Of a stretch of 64,000 nt of DNA, positions 15,853 to 34,734 are shown piece by piece. The notes beneath the pieces were generated by a model. That model saw only the letters and a list, made by a program, of their open reading frames with translations, had not been told where the DNA came from and ran no database searches. The stretch is from Candidatus Margulisiibacteriota bacterium (GTDB taxonomy: Bacteria; Margulisbacteria; WOR-1; O2-12-FULL-45-9; XYB2-FULL-48-7): contig JBAZZV010000002.1 in NCBI GenBank assembly GCA_041658645.1, forward strand, positions 107,907 to 171,906, read 5' to 3'. The position numbers were made by a program, and so were the translations under genes. The stretch's first letter is position 1; the number at the start of each line of letters is the position of its first letter.

Positions 15853-16025
15853 GAACACTCAGCATCTATCGTGACAGGCGACTCAAACCCCTCTTGAAAT
15901 AAGTGTATCACGAAGGATAACCCTGTTTCAAGGTGGTTTGAAATGGCTTTAAAGCAGTTTGATTGTGTTTGTTAAAAGATTGTTTGAAGGATATTAAGAA
16001 ATTAATAATTATGCTTGAATAGGGC

Positions 16026-16793: not shown

Positions 16794-16821
16794 TATTTTT
16801 GAGCGCTAAACCATACCTATT

Positions 16822-17037: not shown

Positions 17038-17051
17038 TCTATGTCTTCCTC

Positions 17052-17357: not shown

Positions 17358-17372
17358 TGGTCCCCTCCTTAC

Positions 17373-18218: not shown

Positions 18219-18363
18219 TTATGGTTCCCCCTTCATGCACAAAAATGGCCCTATGCTACATAAATTATATGCCACTCTTGATAGGATTATACTATTCTAG
18301 TAATTCATACGCTACCTACCGATCTCGATAGGCATACTATGCGGATGGGCCATTCAAAATAAA

Positions 18364-18378
18364 TTGTTAGAAAACAGA
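18364..18378. promoter_or_regulatory. 15 nt motif TTGTTAGAAAACAGA, copy 1 (second copy 19691-19705)
   Basis: Exact 15-mer repeated in two intergenic regions of the island. Confidence 0.3.
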
Positions 18379-18487
18379 AATAAAAGAAGAAATGCCTTGA
18401 ATTTTCATTGCTCCATATCTATAATTCCAACATACTTGTTTTTGAAGAATTGGGAAAATGAATATTTATACAAAGGGAGTCTGAGAA

Positions 18488-18751
18488 ATGTTTTACAGTC
18501 TACACATATCATTTGGCGATGGGCATAAAGGGACATCAATAATCCTGCCCGATAAAGAAGTAGAGAGGATAAATGAACTCAGGCGAATTGCTAAAGAGAT
18601 CGAAATCCTCAGCGAAACGGGCTGGAAACATACTGAACCAATCGAACAAATACATATAAACGAGAATCAAACTCGTTGGGAAGTCATTCCAATAAGCCCC
18701 AATGAACTATCAATACTTAAAAAGAAAGTCGGAATAATCCTGAGTTCCTAG
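18488..18751 (+). CDS. Hypothetical small protein
   Basis: 87 aa ORF; only plus-strand ORF in the island. Confidence 0.3.
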   Translation: MFYSLHISFGDGHKGTSIILPDKEVERINELRRIAKEIEILSETGWKHTEPIEQIHINENQTRWEVIPISPNELSILKKKVGIILSS

Positions 18752-18769
18752 CATTCCCCCGATTGAGTG

Positions 18770-19489
18770 CTACCAAGTTGTATTATATAGGGATATTTTT
18801 ATAGTGTTATCTTCAAGTTGATTAAATGATGATATGCCATATTTAATTTTCAATTTTTTATTCTGATCGTCCGCGTCTGCGTATGCATCATAAGTCCAAT
18901 AAAACCAATTGGCAATATAAACTAATGCCCAAGTTCCGCTCGAATTATTAGTGCTGGTGCCGTAATAATTATAGGATTTTGCAGTCATCCCACTGTATGA
19001 AGCAATAGCAATAACCCAAGATCCTATTGCTTTCGGCCAATTCCCATTGACAACTTGACCACCCCCAATAATCAGAAAAGAAAGTAGCGCGGATATCCCC
19101 GGGTCTTTCTTTTCTGAGCTATATAAACTTAAATTTGACAACATTCTGTCGGAACTGCCCGAATAATATTGATTAGTTGATGGGGAATAGTTCTCATCAT
19201 CAACCATTATTGTCGTTAGCTCTCCGGATTTAATTACGACTAGCTTTTCATATTTGGTCTTCAGTGATTTTGTTTCAACAGCCCTAATTGAATGGGACCC
19301 AGCAACAACTTCTTCGAGAAAAAGAGGGGTTTCTCCTGACTTTTCTTCATCTACAAACACGTAGCATGCTGGCCCCTTAGATAACACCTTTAATTGCCCA
19401 TATTGCATATCCAGTGCTAAAGCTGCGCCTGAAAAGATTATATTTAAAGCTAATATTATAAGGACAAAAAGACAAATTGTTTTTTTCAT
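18770..19489 (-). CDS. Secreted/membrane hypothetical protein (start set at MKKTICLF signal peptide)
   Basis: Signal peptide, beta-rich N-domain, two C-terminal TM segments. Confidence 0.4.
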   Translation of the reverse strand: MKKTICLFVLIILALNIIFSGAALALDMQYGQLKVLSKGPACYVFVDEEKSGETPLFLEEVVAGSHSIRAVETKSLKTKYEKLVVIKSGELTTIMVDDENYSPSTNQYYSGSSDRMLSNLSLYSSEKKDPGISALLSFLIIGGGQVVNGNWPKAIGSWVIAIASYSGMTAKSYNYYGTSTNNSSGTWALVYIANWFYWTYDAYADADDQNKKLKIKYGISSFNQLEDNTIKISLYNTTW

Positions 19490-19690
19490 ATTGGCACCTC
19501 CTAATAAATACCACCAACTCACTCAACTACATCCTGATTATACTTCAATAGAAAGCCTGGTCAAGTTTATTATTTATCCTCTTTCTCCCCATCCTTTGCC
19601 ACGCATTTTTGCCCTTACGTTTTCCCTGTCTCTGTTTAAACCAACAAGCTTTCCCCAGCAAACAACTATTCTAAATTAATTGTTAGAAGA

Positions 19691-19705
19691 TTGTTAGAAA
19701 ACAGA
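19691..19705. promoter_or_regulatory. 15 nt motif TTGTTAGAAAACAGA, copy 2, preceded by a partial repeat
   Basis: Identical to 18364-18378. Confidence 0.3.
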
Positions 19706-20208
19706 CAAGTGAGAGAATCAACGAAAAGACACAAGCCGTTAATTTTCCCTTGTTAATACGTTTAACACTCGATCCTTCGGGCATTAGTCAGAAGTGTGGC
19801 TTATCGCTGCAGAGGTCCTTGACAACTAAATATAGAGGTCAACTATTTTATCGAAATCTTTTTTGGAGAGGGATTTTTGCATATTTATTTTAACCTTTCG
19901 TTTCCCGCTCTCAAATATTAATGGAAAAACAAAAGGACAATTTTTGCTAACCATACGATACTCTATGTATAAATCAAAAAGGAATTTGATTATCTCTGCA
20001 ATATTGAACACAAACATTATGGTTTGCCATTCAGGGCAACCACCCATCCCCGGCATAATCCCCGCCCTGCCGTGAACGGCAACTATTCTTACTTTCTTTT
20101 TAGAAACAGGTTTTTCTTGAATGGCCTTCTTGTCAATGCTTTTTATTATTTTTTGACATCGAAGGGGTTATCCCCGGGAATAGTAAGTTTAATAACCTTC
20201 TTTTTCAT

Positions 20209-20412
20209 TTAAATGTTTTTATCACGAAAGGAATAGAAGAGAATACCCAAAATAATTGTAAATGGTAAAAATACAATAAATAAAAACATAAGGAGTTTTA
20301 TTAATAGGCCCTCTAACGAATAAACGTTTGAATTCCATAGTCCAAATAAAATAAAAAAGAATGAAGATGAAATACCTAATATCCACAATATAACCGTTTG
20401 CTTTTTATTCAT
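20209..20412 (-). CDS. Small membrane protein
   Basis: 67 aa, two TM helices. Confidence 0.3.
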   Translation of the reverse strand: MNKKQTVILWILGISSSFFFILFGLWNSNVYSLEGLLIKLLMFLFIVFLPFTIILGILFYSFRDKNI

Positions 20413-20547
20413 ATTATGCCATCCCTATTTCAAAAGTTCTTCAATCCGAACCCTAAGTACTTTAGCGATAATCTGAATGGTTGACAAATTGAATTATACA
20501 CCCAAACAATAGTAATGCATAATAAAAGAAACTGGCCCAAAGGGATT

Positions 20548-20632
20548 TCCCCGACGGACATTAATATATAAATAATAGAAACGTCGGGATCCCGCCGTTC
20601 CACTATATCAAAATATATTAATGAGGGCGGGA
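20548..20632. repeat. Double-hairpin repeat element, copy C; right boundary of island, inserted in the T-loop of a partial tRNA-Asp duplicate
   Basis: Flanks ctgtcCcgcaggagaccgagggGTTC | element | AATccctttgggcc match tRNA-Asp from anticodon loop to acceptor 3' strand. Confidence 0.65.
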
Positions 20633-20735
20633 GAACCCCTCGGTCTCCTGCGGGACAGAACATACGAGAAGAAACTAAACTTGTTCTCCGTAGCCACGAG
20701 TCCCGACGAATAGTCGGGACGAGGGCGAAGGAGAA

Positions 20736-20811
20736 CGGGCCCGAAGGGATTTGAACCCTCGGTCTCCTGCGTGACAGGCAGGCGCGTTAAACCAGACTAC
20801 GCTACGGGCCC
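20736..20811 (-). tRNA. tRNA-Asp (anticodon GTC)
   Basis: GGGCCCG acceptor, anticodon loop CTGTCAC, T-loop TTCAAAT. Confidence 0.85.
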
Positions 20812-20939
20812 GCGCGAACCTCAACTTATAACCGATAACCGATAACTAATAACTTAGAAACTGTCACTTTATCAATTATCATTCAAAAAATTATTATACC
20901 AGCTAAAGGGGATGTTGGAAAGGTGTATTATGTAACTTT

Positions 20940-21284
20940 TTAAATTGAATTGATCAGCCCCAGGAGCATCTTCGAGATCTCTTCAAACACGGCATACAAT
21001 TCCTTTTGTTGCAGTTCGTTGATCACTTTATCATCAGATAACAAGTCGATGATCGCGACTACCTCGTAGGTTGACCCGCGCGCGATAGTAAAGAAGTTTT
21101 TCTTATCGGCGCTTGACGATTTGCCGGTTCCTTCGGCTATATTGAGAACTATGCTTAGCGCTGCCCTTTTAAGCTGATCAAAAAGGGCTTTATCGACGTG
21201 GTGGCTGTTGGCCAAAAGAGCGAATAGAAGCTTCCGTGCTTCCTTGGCCTTCTGATAAACCTTCAGTTTTTCAAAATCAAACAT
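20940..21284 (-). CDS. Four-helix-bundle protein (23S rRNA intervening-sequence / TIGR02436-like family)
   Basis: 114 aa; VLNIAEGTGKSS...FFTIARGSTYE motifs characteristic of the IVS-encoded four-helix bundle family. Confidence 0.65.
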   Translation of the reverse strand: MFDFEKLKVYQKAKEARKLLFALLANSHHVDKALFDQLKRAALSIVLNIAEGTGKSSSADKKNFFTIARGSTYEVVAIIDLLSDDKVINELQQKELYAVFEEISKMLLGLINSI

Positions 21285-21377
21285 AATAAATAGTACTTAG
21301 TGTGAGTGTGCGTCTTGAGTCTTGAGCGTCGTCCGCTAACTACTAACTACTCACACTCACTCTCAAGACTTAATAAA

Positions 21378-21463
21378 CGGAGGGGGAGAGATTCGAACTC
21401 TCGCTACCTTACGGTACTAACGGTTTAGCAAACCGTCCCCTTGAACCACTTGGGTACCCCTCC
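21378..21463 (-). tRNA. tRNA-Ser (anticodon GCT)
   Basis: Long variable arm; GGAGGGG acceptor; anticodon loop TTGCTAA. Confidence 0.85.
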
Positions 21464-21524
21464 ATGCTCGCTATCGCTCGAAATCCTAAATCCTAAATTC
21501 TAAATCCGAAATATAAGGTCGAAA

Positions 21525-21611
21525 CGGAGGGAGGAGGATTTGAACCTCCGATACCCTTGCGGGCATACTAGTTTTCAAGACTAGCGCCATCAGCCGCTCG
21601 GCCATCCCTCC
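21525..21611 (-). tRNA. tRNA-Ser (anticodon TGA)
   Basis: Long variable arm; GGAGGGA acceptor; anticodon loop CTTGAAA. Confidence 0.85.
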
Positions 21612-21716
21612 TCGCTCAACGAACGCTCACATTAACAATTTAGTTTATTTTTTGCAAGCTTCACTTATTATAAGTTGTGTTAGCTTGCTTTTCAAGCCCG
21701 CCTTAGGAATAATCGC

Positions 21717-21746
21717 TTGACTGCCGCGCAAGGACGCAGGTATAAT
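21717..21746 (+). promoter_or_regulatory. Sigma70-like promoter upstream of the LexA-methyltransferase gene (TTGACT-N18-TATAAT)
   Basis: Near-consensus -35 and -10 hexamers about 50 nt upstream of the start. Confidence 0.45.
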
Positions 21747-21797
21747 TAGGTCAATCGAAAATGAATCGAAAGTCAAGCGAAGGTAAGTGAAGGTCAA

Positions 21798-23252
21798 ATG
21801 ATCACCAAGAGGCAAAAACAGACCCTGGACTTTATAAAAAACCATCAACTTAGGAGAGGGTATGCCCCTTCCCTTGAGGAGATCAAGGATCATCTTAAAC
21901 TTTCTTCCGTATCAACGGCACATCATCATGTTAAAGCATTGGAAGCGCTTGGATTGCTAAAAAAAAAGGAAAACCAGCCACGCGCAATTAGTCTTTATGA
22001 TAATGAACAGTTAATTAGTATGCCTTTGCTTGGAACCATTGCCGCCGGTGAACCCATTGAAGCTATTCAGGAAAAAGAAATAATTGCCATTCCCAAATCA
22101 AAATTAACTCAAAATGGTGAGTTTTACGCGCTACGTGTTTCTGGCAATAGCATGACAGATGAAAACATTAATGATGGCGATATCATTATAGTAAAAAGCC
22201 AGTCAACGGCCAATAATGGGGAAAAAGTTGTTGCCTTAATAGACAATCAAGCAGTAACCCTAAAAAAGCTGTACAAAGAAAACAAAAACATTCGACTTCA
22301 ACCAGCTAACTCAACTATGCCCCCAATGATATTCTCCCCACAAAGGGTAAATATTCAAGGAGTCGTTGTTGAGATCGTTAAGTCCGATAAACATTCGTCG
22401 CCAGGCATGAGATATTCACCTGAAAACAATTTAGCTGCTCCCCAACATCAAAGTATTAACAATTTCCTGAACAGAGTACTTCAAGGCGATTGCCTTGAAG
22501 TAATGAAAACCATGCCTCCGAAATCAATAAATATGGTTCTGTGTGATCTCCCTTATGGAAACACCCAAAACAAATGGGACAGCATTATCCCCCTTGATAA
22601 ACTATGGACTGAATATGAAAGAATAATTAAAGATAATGGTGTTATAGTTCTTACCTCACAAGGGTTGTTTACCGCCCAATTAATCCTATCCAATCCAAGG
22701 TTATTTAAGTATAAGATTATTTGGGTAAAATCTAAGCCAACTAATTTCCTTAATGCAAAGAAACAACCGCTTCGGAGGCACGAGGATATATGCATATTTT
22801 ACAAAAACCAACCCGATTATAATCCGCAAATGACTCCCGGAGAGCCTTATAACAAGGGGTTCAGGAAAAATCAGCTGACAGGCTGTTATGGGGATTTTAA
22901 GCCTGTTAAAGTTAAAAGTGATGGCCAGCGGTATCCCACAGATGTTGTTTATTTCAAAACGGCAGAGAGTGAAGGCGTTGTTCACCATCCTACTCAAAAA
23001 CCAGTCGAGCTAGGCAGATACCTAATTAAAACATTTACAAAACCAGGAGACATTATCCTCGACAATACTTGCGGCAGTGGGAGTTTTCTTGTTTCAGCCG
23101 TTCTTGAGGATCGATTGTTTATTGGTATCGAAAAAAATGAGGAAGTATTTTTGCACAAAAAGCATCATATTGACTATATTGAAATCTGCAACAAAAGAAT
23201 TAAAGAAGCAAAAAGGAAGGCCGCTGTCGAAAACAGCAGATTGTTCGCCTAA
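21798..23252 (+). CDS. Fusion protein: full-length LexA repressor (wHTH + S24 peptidase) fused to beta-class N6-adenine/N4-cytosine DNA methyltransferase
   Basis: N-terminus has the LexA cleavage site AAGEP, catalytic SGNSM and TLKKL; C-terminus has GDCLEVMKTMPPKSINMVLCDLPYG (CcrM-like DPPY region), HPTQKP and DNTCGSGS (FxGxG). Confidence 0.75.
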   Translation: MITKRQKQTLDFIKNHQLRRGYAPSLEEIKDHLKLSSVSTAHHHVKALEALGLLKKKENQPRAISLYDNEQLISMPLLGTIAAGEPIEAIQEKEIIAIPKSKLTQNGEFYALRVSGNSMTDENINDGDIIIVKSQSTANNGEKVVALIDNQAVTLKKLYKENKNIRLQPANSTMPPMIFSPQRVNIQGVVVEIVKSDKHSSPGMRYSPENNLAAPQHQSINNFLNRVLQGDCLEVMKTMPPKSINMVLCDLPYGNTQNKWDSIIPLDKLWTEYERIIKDNGVIVLTSQGLFTAQLILSNPRLFKYKIIWVKSKPTNFLNAKKQPLRRHEDICIFYKNQPDYNPQMTPGEPYNKGFRKNQLTGCYGDFKPVKVKSDGQRYPTDVVYFKTAESEGVVHHPTQKPVELGRYLIKTFTKPGDIILDNTCGSGSFLVSAVLEDRLFIGIEKNEEVFLHKKHHIDYIEICNKRIKEAKRKAAVENSRLFA

Positions 23253-24172
23253 ATACCCGTGTAAGGTTCTTTTTTCAGTATTTGGGCAGCCCTTTCTAAT
23301 TCTTTGTCTGTTATTAAACCTTCCTCTTTAAACCATTCTAAAAGATGAAAATATTGATTTGAGCTTAAAATCGGCTTAATTTCATTAGTTATATTTGCTT
23401 TTTTCTTAATATATTCCAAGTGTTTATTGTTCAATATGCCTCGACCAATCAAGTCGTAGGTAATACGTATCGCATCAACTGAAGTGAGATTCAAATCCCC
23501 TTTTCGAGCTATATCAGCATTGACATCAGATTGGTCTATTTTGAGCAACTCATCTAAGCTTTGTAAGCCATTCAAATTTTTATTATAAAATTCAATATCA
23601 TGCTTTTGATAAGTAAACCACGTCTTGCCTTGTTCGGTTAATGAGCCTCTAGGTAAATACACGCCTTCTCGTTTAACCCTTTCTTTCGAAACCCAACCAC
23701 ATATATATAATATCCATTTTTGTCTTTTTGTCCCAGGTAGTTTTCTTGTTTTTTTACTAGGGGTTTTAAGGTGTGTCATTAAGTATATATCTACATCTAA
23801 TCGATCATCGTTCATTTGCCTTGGCCAAAAATTATGTTTTGCTTCTCTTGGAATATCATCGTTGCTTAAATATTCCTCTTTAAATGGCAGCGTGCCGCCT
23901 CTGCATTTAACATCAACCTTGATTCCGGTTGGAAGCAGAAAATCATAACCTAAAGAAGGCCGATTGCTTGGATTAATTTCAGGCATTCCTAAATATTTCC
24001 GTACAACTATTTCCGCCAAAGCACCAAACCCCTGCTGTTCTTCACTCCCTCTTTCTGCTCCGGTTGTATTCGGATTAGCGGAAACGAACTGAAATGCCTT
24101 TTGGCGCAAATCAAACCCAGCAGAATCAATCAGTTTGATGGGGATTGGTTTTGGTTTGCTGTATTGATACAT
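23249..24172 (-). CDS. Putative restriction endonuclease-like PD-(D/E)xK nuclease, convergent with and overlapping the methyltransferase gene by 4 nt
   Basis: 307 aa; SLGYDFLLPTGIKVDVKC fits D-x(n)-D-x-K; low GC; no other similarity visible by eye. Confidence 0.35.
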   Translation of the reverse strand: MYQYSKPKPIPIKLIDSAGFDLRQKAFQFVSANPNTTGAERGSEEQQGFGALAEIVVRKYLGMPEINPSNRPSLGYDFLLPTGIKVDVKCRGGTLPFKEEYLSNDDIPREAKHNFWPRQMNDDRLDVDIYLMTHLKTPSKKTRKLPGTKRQKWILYICGWVSKERVKREGVYLPRGSLTEQGKTWFTYQKHDIEFYNKNLNGLQSLDELLKIDQSDVNADIARKGDLNLTSVDAIRITYDLIGRGILNNKHLEYIKKKANITNEIKPILSSNQYFHLLEWFKEEGLITDKELERAAQILKKEPYTGI

Positions 24173-25928: not shown

Positions 25929-27710
25929 ATGCTTAACCGGATCAGGAACTTTTCCATCATCGCCCACATCGATCACGGTAAGTCGACGCTGGCCGACCGC
26001 CTGCTCGACTTCACCCACACGATCGCCAAACGCGATATGCGCGCCCAGGTCCTCGACACGATGGACCTGGAACGGGAACGCGGTATCACCATCAAGGCGC
26101 AGGCGATCAGGATGGAATACCAAAACTATATTCTTAACCTGATCGATACGCCGGGCCACGTTGATTTTTCTTACGAAGTCTCGCGCTCCCTGGCCGCCTG
26201 CGAAGGAGCCCTCCTCCTGGTCGACGCCACCCAGGGGATCGAGGCGCAGACCCTCGCCAACTACCACCTCGCCTTGAACAATAAACTGACCATCATCCCG
26301 ATCATCAACAAGATCGACCTCCCCGGCGCCGAGGTGGAAATGGCCCGGAACGAGCTGATCAACACCCTCGGCTTCAAGTCCGAGGATATCTTGCTCGCTT
26401 CGGCCAAGGAGGGGCGCGGCATCGGCGAGATCATTGACGCGGTGATCAAACGGGTCCCCGCTCCGCTGGGCGATCCCGACGCGCCGCTGCAAGCTTTGAT
26501 CTTTGATTCCCATTACGACCCCTACCGCGGCGTGATCATCTATATCCGGATCGTCAACGGCACGTTAAATAAGGGGGACAAGATCCTGTTAATGGGGACC
26601 GGCAAGGATTTTGAGGCCCTGGAGATCGGCACCCTCCGGCTCGACCTGATCCCGCGCGACACTCTCTCCGCCGGCGAGGTCGGCTATCTGATCGGCAATA
26701 TCAAAACCATCTCTGACGCGCACGTCGGCGACACCGTGACCAATATCAAGCGGCAGGCCACCACTGCCCTCCCCGGCTATAAGAAGATCAAGCCGATGGT
26801 CTTCTGCGGTTTTTATCCGATCAACGGCGAAGATTATAAGCTCCTCAAGGAATCGATCGAAAAGCTGCAGCTTAACGACGCCGCCCTTTTTTATGAACCG
26901 GAAACCTCGGCGGCACTCGGCTTTGGTTTCCGCTGCGGTTTTCTCGGCCTCCTCCATCTGGAAATAACCCAGCAGCGGCTGACCAGGGAATTTAATATTG
27001 GGCTGATCGCCACCACCCCGAACGTCGTCTATAAAGTAAATTTGCATAACAAAAAGACCCTGTTCATTGACAACCCGACCAAGCTTCCCGATGTGTCGGC
27101 GATCGAATCGATCGAGGAACCGTATTTGAAAGTGAGCATCTTCACCCCGGCCGAGTACGTCGGCTCGGTCATGACCCTGGCCACGGAAAAACGGGGGACC
27201 TTCATCAACCTGGAATATCTCGACCCGACCCGGGCCGTGGCCACTTATGAAATACCGCTGGCCGAAGTGATCATCGAGTTCCACGATCTGCTTAAATCGG
27301 TGACCAAAGGTTACGCCTCGATGGATTACGAGCAGATCGGTTTCCGGCCTTCTGACCTCGTCAAACTCGATATCCTGATCAACGGGGAGCTGGTCGACGC
27401 TCTCTCCTTCATCGTCCACCGCGACCGCGCCTACTACTACGGCAAGAAGCTGACCGAGCGGTTGGTCGAGGAGATCCCCCAGCATCAGTTCTCTGTCCCG
27501 ATCCAGGCGGCGATCGGCGGCAAAGTGATCGCCCGCGAGACGATCCGCGCCCGGCGCAAGGATGTGCTGGCCAAATGCTACGGCGGCGACATCACCCGCA
27601 AGCGGAAGCTCCTGGAAAAACAGAAAGAGGGGAAAAAGAAGATGAAGCTGATCGGCCGGGTCGAGATCCCCCAGGAAGCATTCCTCGCCGTCCTGCGCAT
27701 CGGGCAATGA
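25929..27710 (+). CDS. lepA: Elongation factor 4
   Basis: 593 aa; N-terminus [20 protein letters not shown] (G1 motif); LepA C-terminal domain. Confidence 0.9.
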
Positions 27711-29038
27711 CCGCCTCGCTCTACGTCCACATCCCCTTTTGCAAACAAAAGTGCAACTACTGTGATTTCGTTTCTTATGCCGGGAAGGAAAATTTCATTG
27801 ACGAGTATGTTGAGACGATGATCCGAGAATTCGAGTCCCGGTGTTCTGTGCTCTATGTTCCGTGTTCTACTGTCTTCTTCGGCGGCGGGACCCCGACCCT
27901 GCTCGAACCAAAGCATTTCGATAAAATATTATCCACATTCATTAGTCATTCGTCATTAGTCATTAGTCATTCAGAGATCTCCATCGAAGCTAATCCAGGA
28001 ACTGCCGGCAAAGCCAAGCTAAAAGCCCTTAGACAACTCGGTATCAACCGTCTCTCGATCGGCGTCCAGTCGTTCAACGACCGGCAGCTAAAGACCCTGG
28101 GGCGGATCCATGACTCCGCCACAGCTAAACGTTTTTATCAGGACGCGCGTGACGCCGGCTTCGACAATATTAATCTCGATCTGATCTTCGCCCTGCCCGG
28201 GCAGACCTTAGCTGAATGGAAACGCGATCTGGCCACGGCGATCGCGCTAAAACCAGAACATCTTTCAACTTATAATTTACAAATTGAAGAGGGAACACCT
28301 TTCTGGGAAAGGTTCAAAGAGCCCTCACCCGCTGCCGCAAACCGACGCACCCTCTCCCAGAGGGAGAGGGTAATGAGCCAAGCAGACTTGCAAAACACCT
28401 TCTCCCCCCCTCACCCGCTTACGCAAAGTGTCCCCCCTCTCCCAGAGGGAGAGGGTACTTCGCCTTTAATTCCCGTTTGCGCAACACCTTCTCCCTTTGG
28501 GAGAAGGTGCGCCTCCTTGGCGCATTGGATGAGGGGAGAGAAGGTGCATAGTTCTGGTAGAGCGGATGAGGGCCTCAGTCTCCCTTCCGAAGATGAAGAG
28601 CTGGCAATGTATGAATATGCCATCGAAGAACTGGCCGCTCACGGCTACAAACATTATGAGATCTCTAATTTTGCTAAACCGGGTTATGAATGTCAGCACA
28701 ATTTGGTTTACTGGCGGAACGAGAATTATCTCGGCATTGGCGCCGGCGCGCACTCCCATGTAAACGGCCAGCGCTGGTCTAATCCAAACTGTATCGAAAA
28801 ATACCTGGAAACCGCGACGTTTAGTCGCAGGTTTCCAGGTTCGACTGCCGACCAACGCGAAACGATCTTCCTCGGCCTCCGCCTCCTGGACGGTTTGTCA
28901 ATTAAGAAATTTAAAGGCTTTGAGGCTCAAGTCGCTGAACTGATAAAAGACGGCTTGTTAACCGAGGAAAAGGGGAATTATAAACTAACCCGGCAAGGTC
29001 TATATCTGGGCAATCTGGTCTTCGAGAAGTTCGTATAA
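27707..29038 (+). CDS. hemW: Radical SAM heme chaperone HemW (HemN-like), carrying an approximately 84 aa in-frame insertion
   Basis: [10 protein letters not shown] (CxxxCxxC); GGGTPT; C-terminal HemN domain; start ATG overlaps lepA stop (ATGA). Confidence 0.8.
27936..27974. repeat. Heptanucleotide tandem repeat CATT(A/C)GT, about 5.5 copies, inside the hemW coding region
   Basis: cattcattagtcattcgtcattagtcattagtcattcag; encodes [13 protein letters not shown]. Confidence 0.5.
28321..28573. mobile_element. MITE-like hairpin repeat element (TIR GCCCTCACC/GGTGAGGGC-like), copy 1, inserted in frame within hemW
   Basis: Contains two CCCTCTCCC-AGA-GGGAGAGGG perfect hairpins plus CACCTTCTCCC-TTT-GGGAGAAGGTG; ends gccctcaccc ... 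tggtagagcggatgagggc; homologous to the 49391-49521 copy. Confidence 0.55.
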
Positions 29039-29041
29039 GCC

Positions 29042-29524
29042 TTAGGCCTTCAAATATCCCAAGAAATTGAAGAATCCTTTTCCTGGTATAACAAAATCCG
29101 CTCCCACCCCCATCATCTCTTTGTTCTTCTTACCGCTGGCTGAATTGGCTGCAATATAACCCTTATATTTCAAATCTCTTAATTCCTTTACTAATTCCGG
29201 GCCCGAGGTGTTGAACATCTGCCCATCCATAACAACCAATTCCGGATTGTGTTCAGCAACGAGTTTAAGTCCCTGCTCTCTTATTGGGAGACCCGGATCA
29301 ACCGCTACAACTTTAACATTGTAATCTCTCAGCAGCTGTTGCGCACTTTTCAAATAATTGGGGTCATCATCAACCAGAAGGATCGTCTTGATGACTTGTG
29401 GCCTGCCCGGTTTAACAAATTCCGCCTTTAGCTGCACGCCGACTGCCGGCGAATGACCTGCCGCCATAAAACATCGGTAATCAAATAGTTTTCTGTAAGA
29501 AGACACGGGAAATTTAACGTCCAC
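29042..29524 (-). CDS. Response-regulator receiver-domain protein (stand-alone, CheY-like)
   Basis: LLVDDD acidic pocket, VVMDGQM phospho-acceptor region, conserved Lys near the C-terminus. Confidence 0.45.
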   Translation of the reverse strand: MDVKFPVSSYRKLFDYRCFMAAGHSPAVGVQLKAEFVKPGRPQVIKTILLVDDDPNYLKSAQQLLRDYNVKVVAVDPGLPIREQGLKLVAEHNPELVVMDGQMFNTSGPELVKELRDLKYKGYIAANSASGKKNKEMMGVGADFVIPGKGFFNFLGYLKA

Positions 29525-29590
29525 TTCATCAGCCTCCTGCTAATGAGATTATCATCATTTTCAATCTGGAATTTCATCAAATCCGCCCTC

Positions 29591-29646
29591 TTGACACTTA
29601 TACAATAAACTTGTTATAATTAGCACTCCAAAGGAGAGAGTGCTAA
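29591..29646 (+). promoter_or_regulatory. Sigma70 promoter (TTGACA-N18-TATAAT) followed by a perfect CIRCE operator, TTAGCACTC-N9-GAGTGCTAA
   Basis: CIRCE at 29620-29646 overlaps the hrcA RBS and start; textbook HrcA operator. Confidence 0.85.
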
Positions 29647-30395
29647 TGCCGGCTAAGTTAGAATTAGATGACCGTAAAAAACGTATTTTAGAGGCGATCG
29701 TCCGGGATTATCTGCACACAGCCGAACCGGTCGGCTCGCGCACTATCTGGCGCGCTTACATGCCCGATCTTTCCCCCGCCACCATCCGCAACGAAATGGC
29801 CGACCTGGAAGCGCTCGGGATGATCGTCCAGCCGCACACTTCGGCCGGGCGGGTCCCGACCGACCTCGGCTATCGCTTTTATGTCGATCACATGATGAAA
29901 TCTCGCCAGTTGACGGTCAAGGAAGAAGAGGTCATTCACGAAGGGTTGAAAGAGATCCACGATGACCTGGAAGATACCATGCACCAGACCCTCAAGGTAC
30001 TCTCCCACCTGCTCGACTATGCCTCGGTCATCGCCACCCTGCAGGACAAGCAGCGGGTCTATGCCGGTGGTTTCGCCCATATGCTCAAGCAACCGGAGTA
30101 TTCCGACGTCAAACTCTCCCGGCGCATTTTTGAAACACTGGAAGAAGAGGACCTGATGGCCAACATGGTCAAGGAATACACGACCGAAAAAGGGATCACC
30201 ATCAAGATCGGCGCGGAGAATACTTTTAAGGAAGTTAAGGACTGCAGCGTGGTCATGGCCTCGTATAAAGTCAACAAAGTGACCGGCGGGCTCGGCGTCA
30301 TCGGACCGACCCGGATGAGCTACGCCCGGACCGCCACTATTTTGGAAAGCATCTCCCGACGCCTGGAAGTTTTATTGGAGGGACATAATGACTGA
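29646..30395 (+). CDS. hrcA: Heat-inducible transcription repressor HrcA
   Basis: N-terminal wHTH (RKKRILEAIVRDYLHTAEPVGSR); operon context with CIRCE. Confidence 0.85.
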   Translation: MPAKLELDDRKKRILEAIVRDYLHTAEPVGSRTIWRAYMPDLSPATIRNEMADLEALGMIVQPHTSAGRVPTDLGYRFYVDHMMKSRQLTVKEEEVIHEGLKEIHDDLEDTMHQTLKVLSHLLDYASVIATLQDKQRVYAGGFAHMLKQPEYSDVKLSRRIFETLEEEDLMANMVKEYTTEKGITIKIGAENTFKEVKDCSVVMASYKVNKVTGGLGVIGPTRMSYARTATILESISRRLEVLLEGHND

Positions 30396-30882
30396 AGAGT
30401 TGGAAGAAATTAAGCCGGAACTGCCGCCAGAAAAAAGCGAGCTCGAGCTGATGAAGGAGCAGGTAGCCGAGGGGAAGAATAGGATGCTCCGGGCAATGGC
30501 CGATCTTGATAACTTCAAGAAGCGCTCTTTGCTCGAGCGGGAACAGTTCGTTCAGTTCGCCAACGAAACGCTGATCAGCGACACCCTCCCCGTCCTCGAC
30601 GGCTTTAGCCGGGCGCTCGACGCGGCCGCCAAGATGAAGGCCGGGGAAGAGCTGACCAAAGGGCTTGCCCTGATCAAACGCCAGCTCGAGGACGTCTTAA
30701 CCAAACACGGGGTCAAAGTGATCGAAGCGGTCGGCAAAGTTTACGACCCAAATTTACACGAAGCAATTTTACAGAAAGAGCACCACGGCCCGGAGAATGT
30801 TATCATTGAAGAGATGCAAAAAGGTTACACCTTGCACGGGCGGGTTATCCGGCCGTCTATGGTGATCGTCAGCAAGAAATGA
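30388..30882 (+). CDS. grpE: Nucleotide exchange factor GrpE
   Basis: 164 aa; coiled-coil N-terminus; RAMADLDNFKKR...GYTLHGRVIRPSMV. Confidence 0.85.
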   Translation: MTEELEEIKPELPPEKSELELMKEQVAEGKNRMLRAMADLDNFKKRSLLEREQFVQFANETLISDTLPVLDGFSRALDAAAKMKAGEELTKGLALIKRQLEDVLTKHGVKVIEAVGKVYDPNLHEAILQKEHHGPENVIIEEMQKGYTLHGRVIRPSMVIVSKK

Positions 30883-30986
30883 CAAATGTCCAATGTCGCG
30901 TTGAATGTCAAATGTCCAATGACAAATGTCAAATGAAGGTGTCGCCTGCGGCGACATTATTCTAATCGGAAATCAACAACAAGCTT

Positions 30987-31298
30987 ATGTTAAATGAAGA
31001 ATCAAAAATAAAAATAGATTCATTGACAATAAAAGAATTGGGGGAAAACCTTGCGTTCAGCTATTACGGGGCAATGGATTCAGAGAAGTCGAGATATGCT
31101 CAACATGTTCTTGAGATGAAAAAACGAGAAGAAAACGATGACAGAATCTTGGCTTTGATAGGTTCAATAGGCAATTTAGCTAATTCAAACGAGAAAACAG
31201 CTAAATCTCAAGGTCAACTTACGTTTTGGCAGGTTGTTTTGGCGGGAGCACTCACACTAGCCACATTTGGGTTGATTTATGTTACGTGGATTAAATAA
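30987..31298 (+). CDS. Small hypothetical protein with a C-terminal TM helix (cassette cargo)
   Basis: 103 aa, AT-rich. Confidence 0.35.
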   Translation: MLNEESKIKIDSLTIKELGENLAFSYYGAMDSEKSRYAQHVLEMKKREENDDRILALIGSIGNLANSNEKTAKSQGQLTFWQVVLAGALTLATFGLIYVTWIK

Positions 31299-31654
31299 TG
31301 CAAATTCAGGATAGAGCACTGGAATTTGCGGTCAGGATAATAAAGTTTGCTGATAAGTTACCGAAATCGGCAGCGGGGGCGGTTTTGGTTAAGCAATTGA
31401 TCCGTTCCGGGACATCGATTGGGGCGAATATGGAAGAAGCGGATGGCGCTTCGTCGAAAGCCGATTTTATTAATAAAGTAACGATTGCTAGGAAAGAAGC
31501 AAGGGAAACGCATTATTGGCTACAGCTAATTAAGAAGGCGGAATTGATACATAAAGATAATATTGTTGAATTGGATAGTTTAATTAATGAGGCGGAAGAA
31601 TTGAAGCGTGTTCTTAGCGCAATCATTAACAAAGCAAGAGAAAAGAAACAATGA
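31298..31654 (+). CDS. Four-helix-bundle protein (23S rRNA IVS-encoded protein family)
   Basis: 118 aa; GTSIGANMEEADGASSKADFINKVTIARKEARETHYWLQL matches the family signature. Confidence 0.7.
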   Translation: MQIQDRALEFAVRIIKFADKLPKSAAGAVLVKQLIRSGTSIGANMEEADGASSKADFINKVTIARKEARETHYWLQLIKKAELIHKDNIVELDSLINEAEELKRVLSAIINKAREKKQ

Positions 31655-31789
31655 CAAATGACCAATTAAAAATGACAAATGAAGGTATGCCTTCGGCATA
31701 TCATTTTAATAACGTCGCGCAGCGACACATCAATTTGACATTTGTCATTGGACATTTGACATTAATAAAGGATAAGGGGGAGTAAAGAA

Positions 31790-33676
31790 ATGGCACAGGA
31801 AAAGATCATTGGGATAGATCTGGGGACAACTAACAGTTGCGTGGCGGTAATGATGGGGGGAGAAGCGACCGTCATCCCGAACTCGGAGGGAGGCCGGACC
31901 ACCCCATCGATCGTCGCTTTCCTCAAGGACGGGGCCCGGGTCGTCGGCCAAGTGGCAAAAAGACAGTCGATCACTAATCCGGAGCATACTATCTCCTCAA
32001 TCAAAAGATTTATGGGGCGGCGGTTCGACGAGGTCGGCGGCGAGCTAAAGTATGTCCCCTATCGGGTGGTTAAAGGGAGCAAAGACGAAGTTAAGATCAA
32101 GATTGACGAGAAAGATCACACCCCGCCGGAGATCTCGGCCATGATCCTGCAAAAGATGAAACAGTCGGCCGAGGATTTTCTCGGCGAGCAGGTCAAGAAA
32201 GCGGTCATCACCGTCCCGGCATATTTTAACGACAGCCAGCGCCAGGCGACCAAGGACGCCGGCACCATCGCCGGCCTCGAGGTCGTCCGGATCATTAACG
32301 AACCGACCGCCGCTTCCCTGGCTTACGGCATTGAAAAAAAGAAAGAGGAAAAGGTCGCGGTGTTCGATCTTGGCGGCGGAACTTTTGACGTCTCGGTCCT
32401 TGATATCATGGAAGGCTCGATCGAAGTCCTGGCGACCAACGGCGACACCCATCTCGGCGGCGATGATTTTGACCAGCACATCATGAAGTGGCTGCTCGAC
32501 GAGTTCAAGAAAGACCAGGGGATCGACCTGGGTAAAGACCGGCTGGCAATGCAGCGGCTCAAGGAATCGGCCGAAAAAGCCAAATGCGAGCTCTCCACCG
32601 CCGTGGAAACCGAGATCAACCTCCCCTTCCTGACCGCTGATGCTTCCGGCCCCAAGCACCTGGTCATCAAGCTGACCCGGTCCAAGCTGGAACAGCTGGT
32701 CGGCGACCTGATCGAGCGGTCGATCGCTCCGTGCAAACAAGCGCTCGCCGACGCTGGCCTCAAGGCCAACCAGATCAACGAGGTCATCCTGGTCGGCGGC
32801 ATGACCAGAATGCCTAAAGTTCAGGAAACGGTTAAAGCCTTCTTCGGCAAAGAACCGCACAAAGGGGTCAATCCGGATGAAGTGGTCGCGCTCGGCGCGG
32901 CCATCCAGGGCGGGATCATGTCCGGCGAGACTTCGAAGGAAATGGTCCTGCTTGATGTCACCCCCTTGACCCTCGGGATCGAGACCCTGGGGAGCGTCAT
33001 GACCCCATTGGTCGAGCGGAATACCACCATCCCTTATGAAAAAAGCCAGGTCTTTTCGACCGCGGCTGACGGGCAAACCTCGGTCGAAGTCCATATTCTC
33101 CAAGGGGAACGGCCGATGGCCGCAGATAACCGGACGCTCGGCCGCTTCCATCTCGACGGGATCCCGCCGGCGCCGCGCGGCATCCCCCAAGTCGAAGTAA
33201 CCTTTGATATTGACGCCAACGGGATCCTCAATGTCCGGGCCAAGGATAAAGGGACCGGCAAAGAGCAGAAGATCACCATCACCGCCTCATCCGGCCTGTC
33301 CAAGGACGAGATCGAGAAGATGAAGAAGACCGCCGAGGCGCACGAAGCCGAGGATAAGAAAAAACGGGAAGAAGTCGACACCCGCAACCAGGCCGATGCC
33401 ATGGCCTACTCCGCGGAAAAGACCTTAAAAGAGGCCGGTGACAAGGTCGACGCACCGACCAAAGAGAAGGTCGAGAAGGCGATCGCCGAAACCCGCCAGA
33501 CGCTGGCTGGAACTGACGCCGAAGCGATCAAGAAGTCCCTCGAGAACCTCCAGAAAGAGGTCTACGAGATGTCGGCCAAGATTTATAAAGAAGCCGAACC
33601 GGCCCCCGGCCCGAAAGACGAAACACGAACCACGAACGATGACGAAAAAACGATCGACGCTGAAACGGCGCCATGA
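31790..33676 (+). CDS. dnaK: Molecular chaperone DnaK
   Basis: [24 protein letters not shown], and more. Confidence 0.95.
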
Positions 33677-34734
33677 AGCGTGACCCCTACGAAATACTCG
33701 GTGTAGGCAAAACAGCCTCGCAAGAGGAGATCAAACGGGCTTACCGCAACCTGGCCCGCAAATACCATCCCGACGTCAATAAGGAAGCGGGCTCGGCCGA
33801 CAAGTTCAAAGAGATCAACGGCGCCTATCAGCTCCTCTCCGACCCGCAGAAACGGTCGCAGTATGATTACTACGGCCAGGCCGGACCGGCCGGGGCCGGC
33901 GGCGGCGGTTTCGAAGGTTTTGATTTTGGCGGAGCGGCAGGGTTTGGCGAGTTCGGCGACCTCTTTGACATGTTCTTCGGCGGCCAGCGGGGCGGCCAGC
34001 GCTCCGGCCCACAGCGCGGCGAAGATCTCCGTTACGATCTCAAGATCACCCTCGAACAGGCGGCCACCGGTTTCGACAAAGACCTCGATGTTCTCCACTA
34101 TACCGCCTGCTCGGCCTGCAAAGGGAGCGGCGCTAAACCGGGAACGGCGCCGGTCAAATGCACCGCCTGTAACGGGGCCGGCCAGGTCAGAAAGAACCAG
34201 CGAACATTCCTCGGCAACTTTACCCAGATCGTCCCCTGCCCGGCCTGCCGCGGAACCGGCCAGACGATCAAATCACCCTGTCCAACCTGCGGCGGATCAG
34301 GCCGCGAAAAGAAAAAACATGTCGTTAGGTTAAAGGTCCCCGCCGGGATCGATTCCGGTTACCGCCTGCGCGTCGCCGGCGCCGGCAACGCCGGTGACAC
34401 TGGCGGGCCACCCGGTGACCTCTACGCCTTTATCACGGTTGAACAGCATCCGCTGTTCAACCGCGACGGCGCCAACCTCTACCATCGCCAGGCGATCACC
34501 TTCCGCCAGGCGATCCTGGGCGACGAGATCGTTGTCCCGACCCTCTCCGGCAAGACGGTACTCAAGGTCCCGGCCGGGACCCAACCGAACTCCACTTTCA
34601 AGCTCAAGGAAAAAGGGGTCCCCCATCTCGGCCGGAACAGCCGCGGCGACCTCTACGTCCAGATCGAGGTCGTCATCCCGGCCAAGATCACCAGGCAACA
34701 GGAAGAGCTGTTGAGAAACTTCGATCATGCCTAG
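33673..34734 (+). CDS. dnaJ: Molecular chaperone DnaJ
   Basis: J-domain with HPD, G/F-rich region, four CxxCxGxG zinc-finger repeats. Confidence 0.9.

Follow-up and report, generated by a model that had tools for sequence, protein, structure and literature searches.

A four-helix-bundle gene cassette between inverted heptamer arrays in the grpE-dnaK junction of a Margulisiibacteriota heat-shock operon resembles the intervening sequences of 23S rRNA genes

Introduction

Two old puzzles form the background of this work, namely the intervening sequences (IVSs) of 23S rRNA genes and the tandem heptamer repeats of cyanobacteria, or STRRs, which were reportedly described by Mazel et al. in 1990. 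ORF-bearing rRNA IVSs have been known since about 1990; how they arose, how they spread and what the S23p protein they encode does remain unexplained (PMC4990558), and the S23p/PF05635 family has been termed functionally uncharacterized (bioRxiv 10.1101/2024.02.27.582315). The 23S IVS of Coxiella comprises an S23p ORF and terminal inverted repeats forming a 28-bp stem, which RNase III cuts in the middle; the 5' part of the stem contains tandem heptamers GACAGAT (three copies), whose number varies among strains, and the ORF is apparently not translated (PMC4990558). S23p forms a pentamer (PMC4990558), as does the basic Avd protein (PMC10053308). Tandem heptamer repeats of the type TAACTGA have also been treated (PMC4679880), in a text from which the terms 23S, S23, "four helix" and "intervening" are absent.

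Here we analyze a cassette residing in the heat-shock operon of a Candidatus Margulisiibacteriota bacterium. The window is the whole 64-kb stretch of DNA that was analyzed, and it contains no rRNA; coordinates refer to it, features lie on the + strand unless stated otherwise, and the loci compared with it carry L numbers. Our search of the literature found no paper describing cassettes of four-helix-bundle (4HB) genes and inverted heptamers in mRNA operons, and the build appears to be new outside 23S rRNA genes, so far its one described home.

Results

Host operon and insertion point

The operon consists of hrcA (29640-30395), grpE (30388-30882; Pfam GrpE, E=9e-46), dnaK (31790-33676; HSP70, E=4e-261) and, as its last gene, dnaJ (33673-34734). 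It is preceded by a sigma-70-like promoter (TTGACA-18-TATAAT, 29591-29620; 12/12 in the promoter scan) and a perfect CIRCE operator with 0 mismatches (29620-29646), and this region (29591-29646) is the only transcription source across the cassette that the scan predicts. The cassette itself, delimited by comparison with the empty junction of the relative L253, spans 887 nt (30880-31766) and has a GC content of 38.4%, against 54-59% in its flanks. An earlier note on this DNA had described an AT-rich insertion between grpE and dnaK of a CIRCE-regulated operon, enclosed by exact 29-bp inverted repeats and encoding a small membrane protein and a 4HB protein of the 23S rRNA IVS family, with a second family member beside a tRNA-Ser pair, and all of these elements are borne out by the data given below.

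The cassette is an insertion, since in the closest relative outside the carrier group (L253/L254, GrpE 91% identical) grpE and dnaK are separated by 1 nt. Uninterrupted junctions are likewise found in L258 (13 nt) and L256 (53 nt, heptamers absent), and the same position is occupied in L004, L255 and L273 as in the window. Where the empty site of L253 reads AAGAAA/GGAGCAAAGTAAAATG, the window reads AAGAAA/TGACAAATG...GACATTAAT/AAAGGA... The junction comparison also indicates that the grpE stop codon TGA (30880-30882) comes from the first heptamer of the cassette, and GrpE ends in SKK in the window versus SKKGAK, SKKK or SKKGVPL in the empty-site relatives. The element landed in the last grpE codons, where it supplies a new stop, and the ribosome-binding site of dnaK was left immediately beyond the right arm; dnaK together with this region (AAAGGATAAGGGGGAG; 31767-33676) begins 4 nt past the arm. 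No target-site duplication was found beyond a possible 3-nt AAA at the grpE site, none being evident at the car or pur sites discussed below, and no Rfam family was detected within 29500-31900 at E<=1.

Arms, heptamers and hairpins

The inverted repeats are exactly complementary over 29 nt (30904-30932 versus 31735-31763) and extend to 42 nt at 93% (30904-30945 versus 31722-31763). The arms are tandem arrays of the heptamer AATG[A/T]C[A/C], about 4.5 units each, with AATGAAGG and a small GC hairpin on the inner side of each array. The left arm L1 (30904-30945, perfect core 30904-30932) reads AATGTCA AATGTCC AATGACA AATGTCA and continues into AATGAAGG (30932-30939), a left-end consensus kept in L004, L007, L008, L129, L131 and L132. 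It is followed by the inner hairpin hp1 (TGTCGCC-TGC-GGCGACA, 30940-30956) and ATTATT; a hairpin stands directly 3' of AATGAAGG at 28 of 135 left-end sites, compared with 2% of shuffles, and its stem varies in a compensatory manner. The right arm R (31722-31763, perfect core 31735-31763) consists of inverted heptamers ...TTGACATTTGTCATTGGACATTTGACATT, and its own inner hairpin hp2 (GTCGC-GCA-GCGAC, 31714-31726) has equivalents in L129, L132 and L273. Upstream of L1, an outer heptamer segment, AATGACAAATGTCCAATGTC followed by GCGTTG (30878-30903), pairs with 31746-31763 (18 nt, 94%), and its initial 20 nt match the start of the left end of L004.

A second copy of the left end, L2 (31650-31700), lies inside the cassette and reads AATGACA AATGACC AATTAAA AATGACA AATGAAGG, followed by the hairpin TATGCC-TTC-GGCATA and a U-rich tail; the stop codon TGA of ORF2 sits within its first heptamer. 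L2 and the right end together make up a complete "empty" mini element nested after ORF2 (31650-31763), whose 114 nt are predicted to adopt a Y-shaped fold (-35 kcal/mol, z=-6.1). Three arms also occur in L129 and L132, and L273 has no L2 copy. This anatomy corrects the earlier note, in which a direct repeat followed by a GC hairpin marked both ends. The repeat is indeed present twice, although its left copy is AATGTCAAATGAAGG and not AATGACAAATGAAGG, one base off the right copy. The combination of repeat and hairpin stands at the left end, whereas the other copy of the repeat (31671-31685), together with its hairpin TATGCCTTCGGCATA (31686-31700), lies within the cassette immediately behind ORF2, and the true right end bears a hairpin of its own, GTCGCGCAGCGAC (31714-31726).

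Where 0.47 occurrences of the heptamer motif would be expected in the window, 14 were counted, and the 64 kb contain 13 period-7 arrays, those at 30904, 31650 and 31733 having 4.4-4.7 units. The flank inverted-repeat score of the cassette is 34.5, compared with a maximum of 11.5 among the 59 other gene calls of the window. The idea that the left array acts as a "universal stop" in every reading frame was considered and rejected, the window array having a stop in two of three.

The 4HB gene and its exchangeable passenger

ORF2 (31298-31654) encodes a 4HB protein of 118 aa with a pI of 9.4. It belongs to the 23S rRNA IVS protein (S23p) family by its matches to PF05635 (E=2e-24, 86.1 bits, cut-off 33.8) and TIGR02436 (E=4e-30, 104.2 bits, cut-off 24), and its sequence is similar to that of the solved structure PDB 2RLD, which contains 5 chains (E=8e-25). 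By analogy with the apparently untranslated Coxiella ORF, its translation is uncertain. The second 4HB gene, from another subfamily, lies on the - strand (20940-21284; PF05635, E=1.5e-25) within a co-oriented tRNA cluster (Ser, Ser, 4HB, Asp). Period-7 arrays are found on both sides of it, yet it has no flanking inverted repeat (flank score 7); in L243 its homologue is preceded by an AATGNCN left end.

ORF1 (30987-31298, 103 aa) is an orphan passenger gene, its product carrying a C-terminal hydrophobic helix (mean Kyte-Doolittle value of the terminal 19-mer 1.88), and its stop codon overlaps the ORF2 start in ATAATG. Neither ORF matches a PADLOC model, and ORF1 has no Pfam or NCBIfam match either; just 5 relatives of it were found among 5.8 billion clusters, and it is 61% identical to ORF1 of the carA-carB element in L131. 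In L004 an unrelated ORF of 191 aa takes its place, with breakpoints (30961/31298) falling exactly after hp1 and at the ORF2 ATG in strains whose DnaK proteins are 98% identical. The same position holds a ThsB-like TIR protein in L129, the only passenger with a PADLOC match; in the window and L131 it is occupied by small membrane proteins, and L004 and L007 have unrelated proteins there. The cassette is modular: exchangeable passenger genes occupy a slot that runs from the left hairpin to the start codon of the 4HB gene.

Copies elsewhere in Margulisbacteria

Elements with the conserved left and right ends occur at carA-carB (L007, L008, L129, L131) and at purQ-purL (L132, L168, L245). Others precede nuoH (L164) or separate a circularly permuted ATP-grasp gene from an alpha-E gene (L134). 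L131 carries the module of an ORF1 homologue and a 4HB gene at carA-carB, and the grpE-dnaK junction of the same contig (L258) is empty. No gene other than the 4HB gene is common to all gene-carrying copies of the close subfamily, and it is the lone cargo in L008, L132, L168, L245 and most of the plasmid copies described below. Inverted arrays surround the 4HB gene at all nine Margulisbacteria-type 4HB loci that also carry hp1. Empty mini elements of the same build (110-130 nt) were found in L141, L193, L197 and L177, that of L141 lying upstream of a 16S gene in a related assembly, and other cargo without a 4HB gene in L226, L251, L248 and L196. Solo left-type arrays also exist, in frame inside carA of L129/L131 and hemW of the window, and many left-end matches in metagenomes are solo arrays merging into the Shine-Dalgarno sequence of the next gene. 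Neither a transposase or recombinase gene, in or beside any copy, nor an autonomous partner element was found among the approximately 30 copies examined. A phage origin was rejected, as IMG/VR yielded no left-end match and no close 4HB relative.

The wider 4HB family

On plasmids of Cyanobacteriota, Spirochaetota, Bacteroidota and Chloroflexota, inverted period-7 arrays enclose 13 of the 14 PF05635 genes examined (z = 5-23 versus shuffles), the remaining one having no flanking inverted repeat. These genes are often found within restriction-modification, helicase-methylase or CRISPR operons; 4HB cassettes are also present in the housekeeping operons car, pur and nuo and in an RND efflux operon. 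The earlier note had regarded an IVS-type element in an mRNA operon as unusual, whereas 4HB cassettes with inverted heptamer arrays lie inside many operons, and the surprise lies in the class of element rather than in this grpE-dnaK copy. Relative to co-oriented neighbours, the 4HB gene is in sense orientation at 15 sites and antisense at 2, for which a null of 0.5 is lenient because co-orientation is in any case the usual state of neighbouring bacterial genes. Antisense cassettes are found at cas2-cas1 in Nostoc and Anabaena and in Euhalothece, and sense transcription is therefore not obligatory.

The repeat unit varies from element to element, and the end sequences differ entirely between lineages, while both arms of each element match: on average 16.25 of 18 positions agree with the element's own other arm versus 10.5 of 18 with arms of different elements (permutation p<1e-5), the stem columns of distant elements holding 3.5 Watson-Crick pair types on average. 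L263 and L265, from different genera, have 4HB proteins 85% identical and the common unit TAATTCG, and L263 and L264, from one strain, have 4HB proteins 55% identical and different units. In such comparisons, it is the 4HB protein tree and not the host that the repeat unit follows. The wide-family covariation of the arms would fit an inverted repeat that is required, or arose, at the DNA level just as well as a stem in RNA. In the close subfamily, own and cross matching (21.9 versus 19.3) differ with weak significance (p about 0.02), since one heptamer dialect is common to all its members, and the comparison became decisive only with distant elements. The window copy is exceptional in its perfect 29 bp, since the arms of most Margulisbacteria copies are just 75-90% complementary (83% in L004). 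Among the arm mismatches of 13 Margulisbacteria-type elements, 3 are G.U, 6 A.C and 61 other (mainly A.A, T.T, C.T and G.A), and the strand-specific G.U test for an RNA stem gave no RNA signal in these elements. A generic heptamer scan of reference genomes (3.5 units), used for identifying the type of repeat and not for collecting elements, returned mostly STRR-like arrays of cyanobacteria, mainly Nostocales, with no 4HB gene nearby.

Predicted fate of the transcript

The right arm holds TTGACA twice with no acceptable -10 box following, and the promoter scan reports no internal promoter for dnaK. With none detected, we infer that the cassette is co-transcribed with its neighbours, solely within the CIRCE/HrcA-controlled hrcA-grpE-dnaK-dnaJ transcript. 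The L1:R duplex has a predicted energy of -60.9 kcal/mol (z=-15), and the stem also appears when the whole 926-nt RNA is folded to minimum free energy (z=-7.4). In the transcript, the arms would pair into a duplex of 29-42 bp (-61 kcal/mol), looping out the cassette and bringing the stop codon of grpE close to the start of dnaK. As in rRNA IVSs, the duplex would be a target of RNase III, whose cut would part hrcA-grpE from dnaK-dnaJ and free an ORF1-4HB RNA, and the operon would therefore tolerate the insert as ribosomes tolerate fragmented 23S rRNA. A terminator-like hairpin with a U-rich tail after ORF2 (31684-31702) could end some transcripts before dnaK.

Discussion

The grpE-dnaK cassette is an insertion of the S23p family, modular in anatomy and belonging to a widely distributed group in which the 4HB gene is inherited together with the repeat unit. 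We consider it likely that this cassette, inserted secondarily, is a selfish element of the type represented by the ORF-bearing 23S rRNA IVSs and rides an mRNA operon. The 4HB protein may have a role in the spread or maintenance of such elements.

Several other explanations have to be weighed against this reading. It is conceivable, if on the whole doubtful, that the cassette is a DNA-level transposon, whose arrays and subterminal hairpins serve as ends for a recombinase or transposase encoded elsewhere, or whose 4HB protein acts on DNA; the RNA stem would then be a by-product, and the operon would be read through or partly terminated. The palindromic hairpins hp1 and hp2 resemble those found subterminally in elements that move as single-stranded DNA. 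The empty mini elements, the nested one of the window included, the elements with non-4HB cargo, the solo arrays in frame in carA and hemW and the lack of a G.U excess among arm mismatches all point the same way. Nevertheless, the sole co-inherited gene is the 4HB gene, the copies examined contain or adjoin no transposase or recombinase gene, and target-site duplication amounts at most to the AAA at the grpE site. The ends of the lineages are, moreover, completely different, so that each would need a co-evolving enzyme of its own. A transposon would in any case bear on movement, and it is compatible with the RNA-level consequences of an IVS-type element. Far less credible, and largely refuted, is the view that ordinary horizontally acquired genes lie among host slippage repeats of the STRR type and that the inverted repeat is incidental. 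Many unrelated period-7 arrays do occur in the window, the arrays of the heptamer scan mostly come from cyanobacteria and have no 4HB gene, and solo arrays abound among metagenome matches; but inverted arrays recur around the 4HB genes of both the plasmids and the hp1-bearing Margulisbacteria-type loci, none of the 59 control genes of the window reaches a comparable flank score, the units are specific to the element and not to the host, and the entire unit, ends included, is missing from the empty sites.

Two further possibilities concern function. That the cassette is a two-gene defence or toxin-antitoxin module, in which the upstream gene is the effector, the 4HB protein its regulator or antitoxin and the repeats the mark of a hotspot, is improbable. 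It would agree with the TIR protein in the L129 slot, with the small membrane proteins and unrelated proteins found there in other copies, with the possible translational coupling suggested by the ATAATG overlap and with the frequent residence of plasmid 4HB genes in restriction-modification, helicase-methylase and CRISPR operons. Many copies, however, have the 4HB gene alone, PADLOC recognizes neither gene of the window, cassettes reside in housekeeping operons and RND efflux as well, and the inverted heptamer arrays are left unexplained. Quite improbable, in our view, is a host regulatory insert that sets the grpE:dnaK ratio through the stem, the terminator or switching between L1:R and L2:R pairing and is kept by selection. 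The right arm can indeed pair either with L1 (-61 kcal/mol) or with the nearby L2 (-35 kcal/mol), L129 and L132 are three-armed too, and a terminator-like hairpin follows ORF2. Against such a function, the closest relatives manage with junctions of 1-13 nt, the same element resides in unrelated operons, L273 does without L2, and its low GC content, like its swappable cargo, speaks for a foreign and selfish origin.

As the grpE-dnaK locus and its relatives show, the IVS build of a 4HB gene flanked by inverted heptamer arrays also exists apart from rRNA, as a widespread cassette that enters operons between their genes; the operons concerned serve chaperones, nucleotide biosynthesis, respiration, efflux, restriction-modification and CRISPR adaptation. 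The two old puzzles, rRNA IVSs and cyanobacterial tandem heptamer repeats, become one, and empty sites, swappable cargo and protein-linked repeat units make both testable. It also becomes conceivable that selfish inserts routinely split essential operons at the level of RNA, and isolated genes annotated as "four helix bundle protein" between operon partners would gain an explanation. It is tempting to go further, in a speculation we consider rather unlikely, and to regard the 4HB protein and the heptamer arrays as one self-contained recognition module, in which a basic, ring-shaped homopentamer recognizes, in RNA or DNA, about five of the tandem 7-nt units that belong to its element. The rRNA IVSs, the 4HB genes dispersed over operons of several phyla and at least part of the cyanobacterial STRRs would then be copies and footprints of one undescribed class of mobile elements. 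A module of this sort would explain why the arrays often have 4.3-4.7 units, why the unit co-varies with the protein and why the 4HB gene is the lone constant cargo, and a single element class would spread into transcribed spacers and structured RNAs.

Comparison with known systems

Among the described systems, the Avd protein of diversity-generating retroelements has a homologous four-helix-bundle fold and is likewise basic, although the function of the 4HB protein need not be that of Avd; no reverse transcriptase and no template/variable repeat pair was found beside any copy examined. MITEs and REP/BIME elements share with the cassette group a non-autonomous character, inverted ends, empty copies (here 110-130 nt) and a location between co-transcribed operon genes. 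The elements studied here differ in that their ends are composed of tandem heptamers, many copies bear genes (two in the window), and neither a cognate transposase or RAYT nor a clear target-site duplication was found; we know of no such enzyme for heptamer-ended 4HB elements. STRRs and their kin in cyanobacteria, Beggiatoaceae and Bacteroidetes are also short tandem 7-nt arrays of intergenic spacers, in many cases directly preceding start codons or reaching into the ends of ORFs and occasionally in frame inside genes, and their units are of the same kind (TGACCAA/TTGGTCA). They have been described, however, as direct arrays with no assigned function and were originally defined in heterocystous cyanobacteria, whereas the arrays of the cassette are inverted, enclose a 4HB gene with which the unit is co-inherited, and belong to a Candidatus Margulisiibacteriota host.

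The closest counterparts are the rRNA IVSs of Coxiella burnetii (helix 45), Leptospira and Brucella. Those lie in a helix of 23S rRNA (9, 25 or 45), where the loop is replaced, and the cassette lies between grpE and dnaK; it adds a passenger gene, a nested empty element, inner GC hairpins and the AATGAAGG motif. Excision by RNase III has been demonstrated for rRNA IVSs and would apply to the cassette by extension. The likeness drawn in the earlier note extends beyond the protein family: in both, a sense ORF belonging to S23p/PF05635 is enclosed by terminal inverted repeats (about 28 bp of stem in Coxiella, 29 perfect nt in the cassette), and the stem contains heptamers (GACAGAT in Coxiella; GACAAAT, GTCAAAT and GTCCAAT in the window). 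It is because the Coxiella IVS presents these same three features, ORF, stem and heptamers (PMC4990558), that we read the cassette as an IVS-type selfish element. Both are also sporadically present among close relatives, the cassette being absent from L253, L254, L256 and L258, which implies mobility, and both, having no promoter of their own, would ride a highly expressed host transcript.

A mobile cassette at the grpE stop codon

We show that the segment separating grpE from dnaK in the window, DNA of a Candidatus Margulisiibacteriota host, is a foreign, modular cassette, centred on a gene for a four-helix-bundle (4HB) protein and inserted at the grpE stop. The operon comprises hrcA (29640-30395), grpE (30388-30882), dnaK (31790-33676) and dnaJ (33673-34734), preceded by a sigma-70-like promoter (29591-29620; scan score 12/12) and a perfect CIRCE operator (29620-29646), in agreement with the CIRCE control proposed in the earlier note. 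The insert (30880-31766) has a GC content of 38.4% versus 54-59% in the flanks and carries two genes. ORF1 (30987-31298, 103 aa) has no family match and is an orphan, 5.8 billion clusters containing 5 relatives; its C-terminus forms a hydrophobic helix. ORF2 (31298-31654, 118 aa), already attributed to the protein family of 23S rRNA intervening sequences (IVSs), clearly belongs to PF05635 (E=2e-24) and also matches TIGR02436 (E=4e-30) and the solved structure 2RLD (E=8e-25). The stop codons of grpE and ORF2 each lie within an AATGACA unit, a terminator-like hairpin is located 3' of ORF2, and the dnaK ribosome-binding region begins 4 nt past the right-arm end.

An uninterrupted grpE-dnaK junction, the comparison suggested in the earlier note, is found at several of the homologous loci compared (L-numbers). 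The junction is empty in L253/L254 (GrpE 91% identical to that of the window), with a 1-nt spacer (...AAGAAAGGAGCAAAGTAA-A-ATG; GrpE ending SKKGAK*), in L256 (77%; 53-nt spacer lacking heptamers) and in L258 (75%; 13-nt spacer), and occupied in L004 (96%), L255 (85%) and L273. Occupied loci have in common the junction AAGAAA-TGACAAATG, at which the last three grpE codons were lost and a new stop was supplied. In the empty L256 spacer (3000-3060), AT-rich sequence follows a GC hairpin, TCCCGC-TTTA-GCGGGA, an arrangement similar to the inner portion of an element end and perhaps a remnant of one.

4HB genes between ends of the same kind also occupy carA-carB (L007, L008, L129, L131) and purQ-purL (L132, L168, L245), their products being 67-87% identical to ORF2, and remoter copies, likewise ending in heptamers, are found upstream of nuoH (L164) and at the junction of a circularly permuted ATP-grasp gene with an alpha-E gene (L134). 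At the L131 carA-carB site the 4HB gene is accompanied by an ORF1 homologue (61% identity), DNA similarity to the window spans the entire module (30910-31542, 69%), and the grpE-dnaK junction of the same contig is empty. Judged from these junctions, the cassette is an insertion at the grpE stop and the element has moved.

The region upstream of the 4HB gene behaves as a swappable slot. Identity between window and L004 DNA is 96% up to 30961, the left-hairpin end, and returns to 95% from 31298, where ORF2 has its ATG (DnaK, 98%), while an unrelated 191-aa ORF replaces the ORF1 segment in L004. This slot holds a 186-aa ORF in L007, a ThsB-like TIR protein in L129 and nothing in L008 and L132; in L226, L251, L248 and L196 the same ends enclose other cargo, with the 4HB gene absent.

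Architecture of the cassette ends

The perfect inverted repeats reported to bound the AT-rich cassette are exact over 29 nt (30904-30932 versus 31735-31763) and extend to 42 nt at 93%. Each arm is an array of AATG[A/T]C[A/C] heptamers repeated in tandem about 4.5 times. Neither heptamers nor inverted repeat can be ascribed to chance, since the window has 14 occurrences of the motif versus 0.47 expected, and the flank inverted-repeat score of the cassette is 34.5 versus a maximum of 11.5 for 59 other gene calls in the window. A consensus drawn from seven related loci runs, at the left end, from heptamers through AATGAAGG and a small GC hairpin with a 3-nt loop to an AT-rich RTTATT, and the right end mirrors it (hairpin, ACATNCATT, inverted heptamers). 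A hairpin directly follows AATGAAGG at 28/135 sites, compared with 2% of shuffles. As noticed earlier for two copies, hairpin sequences differ and the palindrome is kept (GTCGCC/GGCGAC, GTCGC/GCGAC, GTCCGCC/GGCGGAC, TATGCC/GGCATA, GTGCC/GGCAC, GTTGC/GCAAC). Their placement at both cassette ends holds for the left one, but the second copy of the left end, which has a hairpin of its own (31650-31700), sits right after ORF2. That copy and the right end make up a complete empty mini element (31650-31763), folding into a Y shape at -35 kcal/mol; L273 lacks the extra copy. Free-standing mini elements of like build occur in metagenomes (L141, L193, L197, L177). The L141 copy (660-782), in which both ends, each with its hairpin, surround an AT-rich spacer, precedes a 16S rRNA gene (909-2394) by ~130 nt and is probably part of the rRNA leader transcript.

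The terminal duplex is predicted at -60.9 kcal/mol (z=-15) and persists when the full 926-nt RNA is folded to its minimum free energy (z=-7.4). Within the close subfamily arm complementarity is merely 75-90%, with no G.U excess among the arm mismatches, and in L004, whose right arm is identical to that of the window, pairing is only 83%. The perfect stem of the window looks as if its left arm had recently been homogenised to match the right one.

Plasmid relatives and solo arrays

Searching plasmids with ORF2 by tblastn gave 31 records (16 from Nostoc), of which 14 were examined; in 13/14 the 4HB gene lies between inverted period-7 arrays (z = 5-23 versus shuffled flanks). The unit varies: AAGTAAA in Nostoc and Anabaena, GGAGGTC in N. 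punctiforme, TAATTCG in N. flagelliforme and Dolichospermum (perfect over 31-32 nt), AATTCAA in N. flagelliforme (perfect over 30 nt), AATCGTA or AATCCCC in Planktothrix, ACCAGTG in Euhalothece, GAAAGNG in Treponema, CAGTGAT in Chondrinema, GATGAAG in Chlorohelix, GATTAGT in Bernardetia and ATTTTAG in Gloeocapsa. Across 12 elements, arms match their own partner at 16.25/18 positions versus 10.5/18 between elements (permutation p<1e-5), with cross-element pairs given the best of 49 registers and arms having been picked as best inverted repeats. Stem columns show on average 3.5 Watson-Crick pair types, a covariation that would fit an RNA requirement or a DNA requirement alike. L263 and L265, from different genera and 85% identical, have one common unit, while L263 and L264, from one strain and 55% identical, have differing units; by this comparison the unit tracks the 4HB protein, not the host.

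Plasmid insertion sites are likewise operons (among them helicase-methylase defence, RND efflux adaptor-permease, DUF1156-HEPN, CRISPR adaptation genes). 4HB genes run sense to their co-oriented neighbours at 15 sites, compared with 2 antisense sites; under a 0.5 null, which is lenient, the binomial value is 0.0012. On Nostoc and Anabaena plasmids (L259, L260) the gene, flanked by AAGTAAA arrays, is antisense between cas2 and cas1. Surveys of cas-associated genes reportedly include PF05635, which such insertions probably explain.

Arrays also occur alone. The carA linker of L129 (1593-1630) and L131 (2024-2061) contains an in-frame AATGACA-type array ending in AATGAAGG (RMTNDKLKMSNEG), which the L007 CarA lacks; coding sequence can thus receive and tolerate left-type arrays. 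The window hemW (27707-29035) has two in-frame insertions relative to L258: a 4.7-unit TCATTAG array (27939-27971, translated SLVISHS) and an ~83-aa block (~28320-28570) from three copies of a 21-nt palindrome, CCCTCTCCCAGAGGGAGAGGG. The solo arrays in carA and hemW point to a DNA-level spreading process. Two further arrays with mutually unrelated units, TTTGATG x4.9 (53499-53532) and GTGTTCC x4.4 (57981-58011), lie near the two edges of a low-GC stretch (~53-58 kb, 44-49% GC).

The second 4HB gene (20940-21284, minus strand), correctly placed beside a tRNA-Ser pair in the earlier note, lies inside a co-oriented Ser-Ser-4HB-Asp cluster (20735-21611). Flank scoring found no inverted repeat enclosing it; a 37-nt imperfect hairpin (21292-21370) lies upstream, and the cluster spacers hold unrelated period-7 arrays (ATAACCG, 20823-20854; two at 21312-21351; AAATCCT, 21481-21512). 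Cluster and gene belong to an AT-rich island (16000-24000; 34-44% GC versus ~57% around), together with a 484-aa ORF (21798-23252) whose sequence suggests a DNA methyltransferase with a fused LexA-like domain at its N-terminus.

Array length is often 4.3-4.9 units (30-34 nt), as in the window at 30904, 31650, 31733, 27939, 20823, 21481, 53499 and 57981 and in plasmid loci L259-L265, which gives five occurrences of the unit core; longer arrays of 11-15 units exist too (L266, L268, L271).

Possible mechanism and relation to rRNA intervening sequences

As a promoter scan found no internal promoter, the cassette would be transcribed from the operon promoter only. By analogy with rRNA IVSs, the terminal duplex may be cut by RNase III, which would split hrcA-grpE from dnaK-dnaJ and free the cassette RNA. 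A 4HB-protein relative is homopentameric (PMC4990558), and 2RLD has 5 chains. It is tempting, though doubtful, to imagine a pentameric 4HB protein reading its own array of about five units, with rRNA IVSs, operon cassettes and cyanobacterial heptamer repeats forming one mobile-element class.

The 4HB family is still termed functionally uncharacterized (bioRxiv 10.1101/2024.02.27.582315), its homology to Avd has been recognised (PMC10053308), and heptamer-repeat papers (PMC4679880) make no mention of 4HB or IVS. Full-text literature searches returned no description of 4HB cassettes in mRNA operons. Residence in such an operon, earlier considered unusual, is thus shared by copies in car, pur and plasmid operons. 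The class itself appears undescribed, and the window copy is an ordinary member. The suggested likeness to an IVS gains support from Coxiella burnetii, whose 428-nt 23S IVS in helix 45 carries an S23p ORF, with tandem GACAGAT heptamers of strain-variable number upstream of it and the 5' cut at the first repeat (PMC4990558). Its terminal inverted repeats pair into a 28-bp stem, in the middle of which RNase III cleaves. The window units are GACAAAT, GTCAAAT and GTCCAAT. S23p ORF, stem and heptamers, present in both, thus all correspond, the sole difference being the host transcript: 23S rRNA in Coxiella, the grpE-dnaK operon here.
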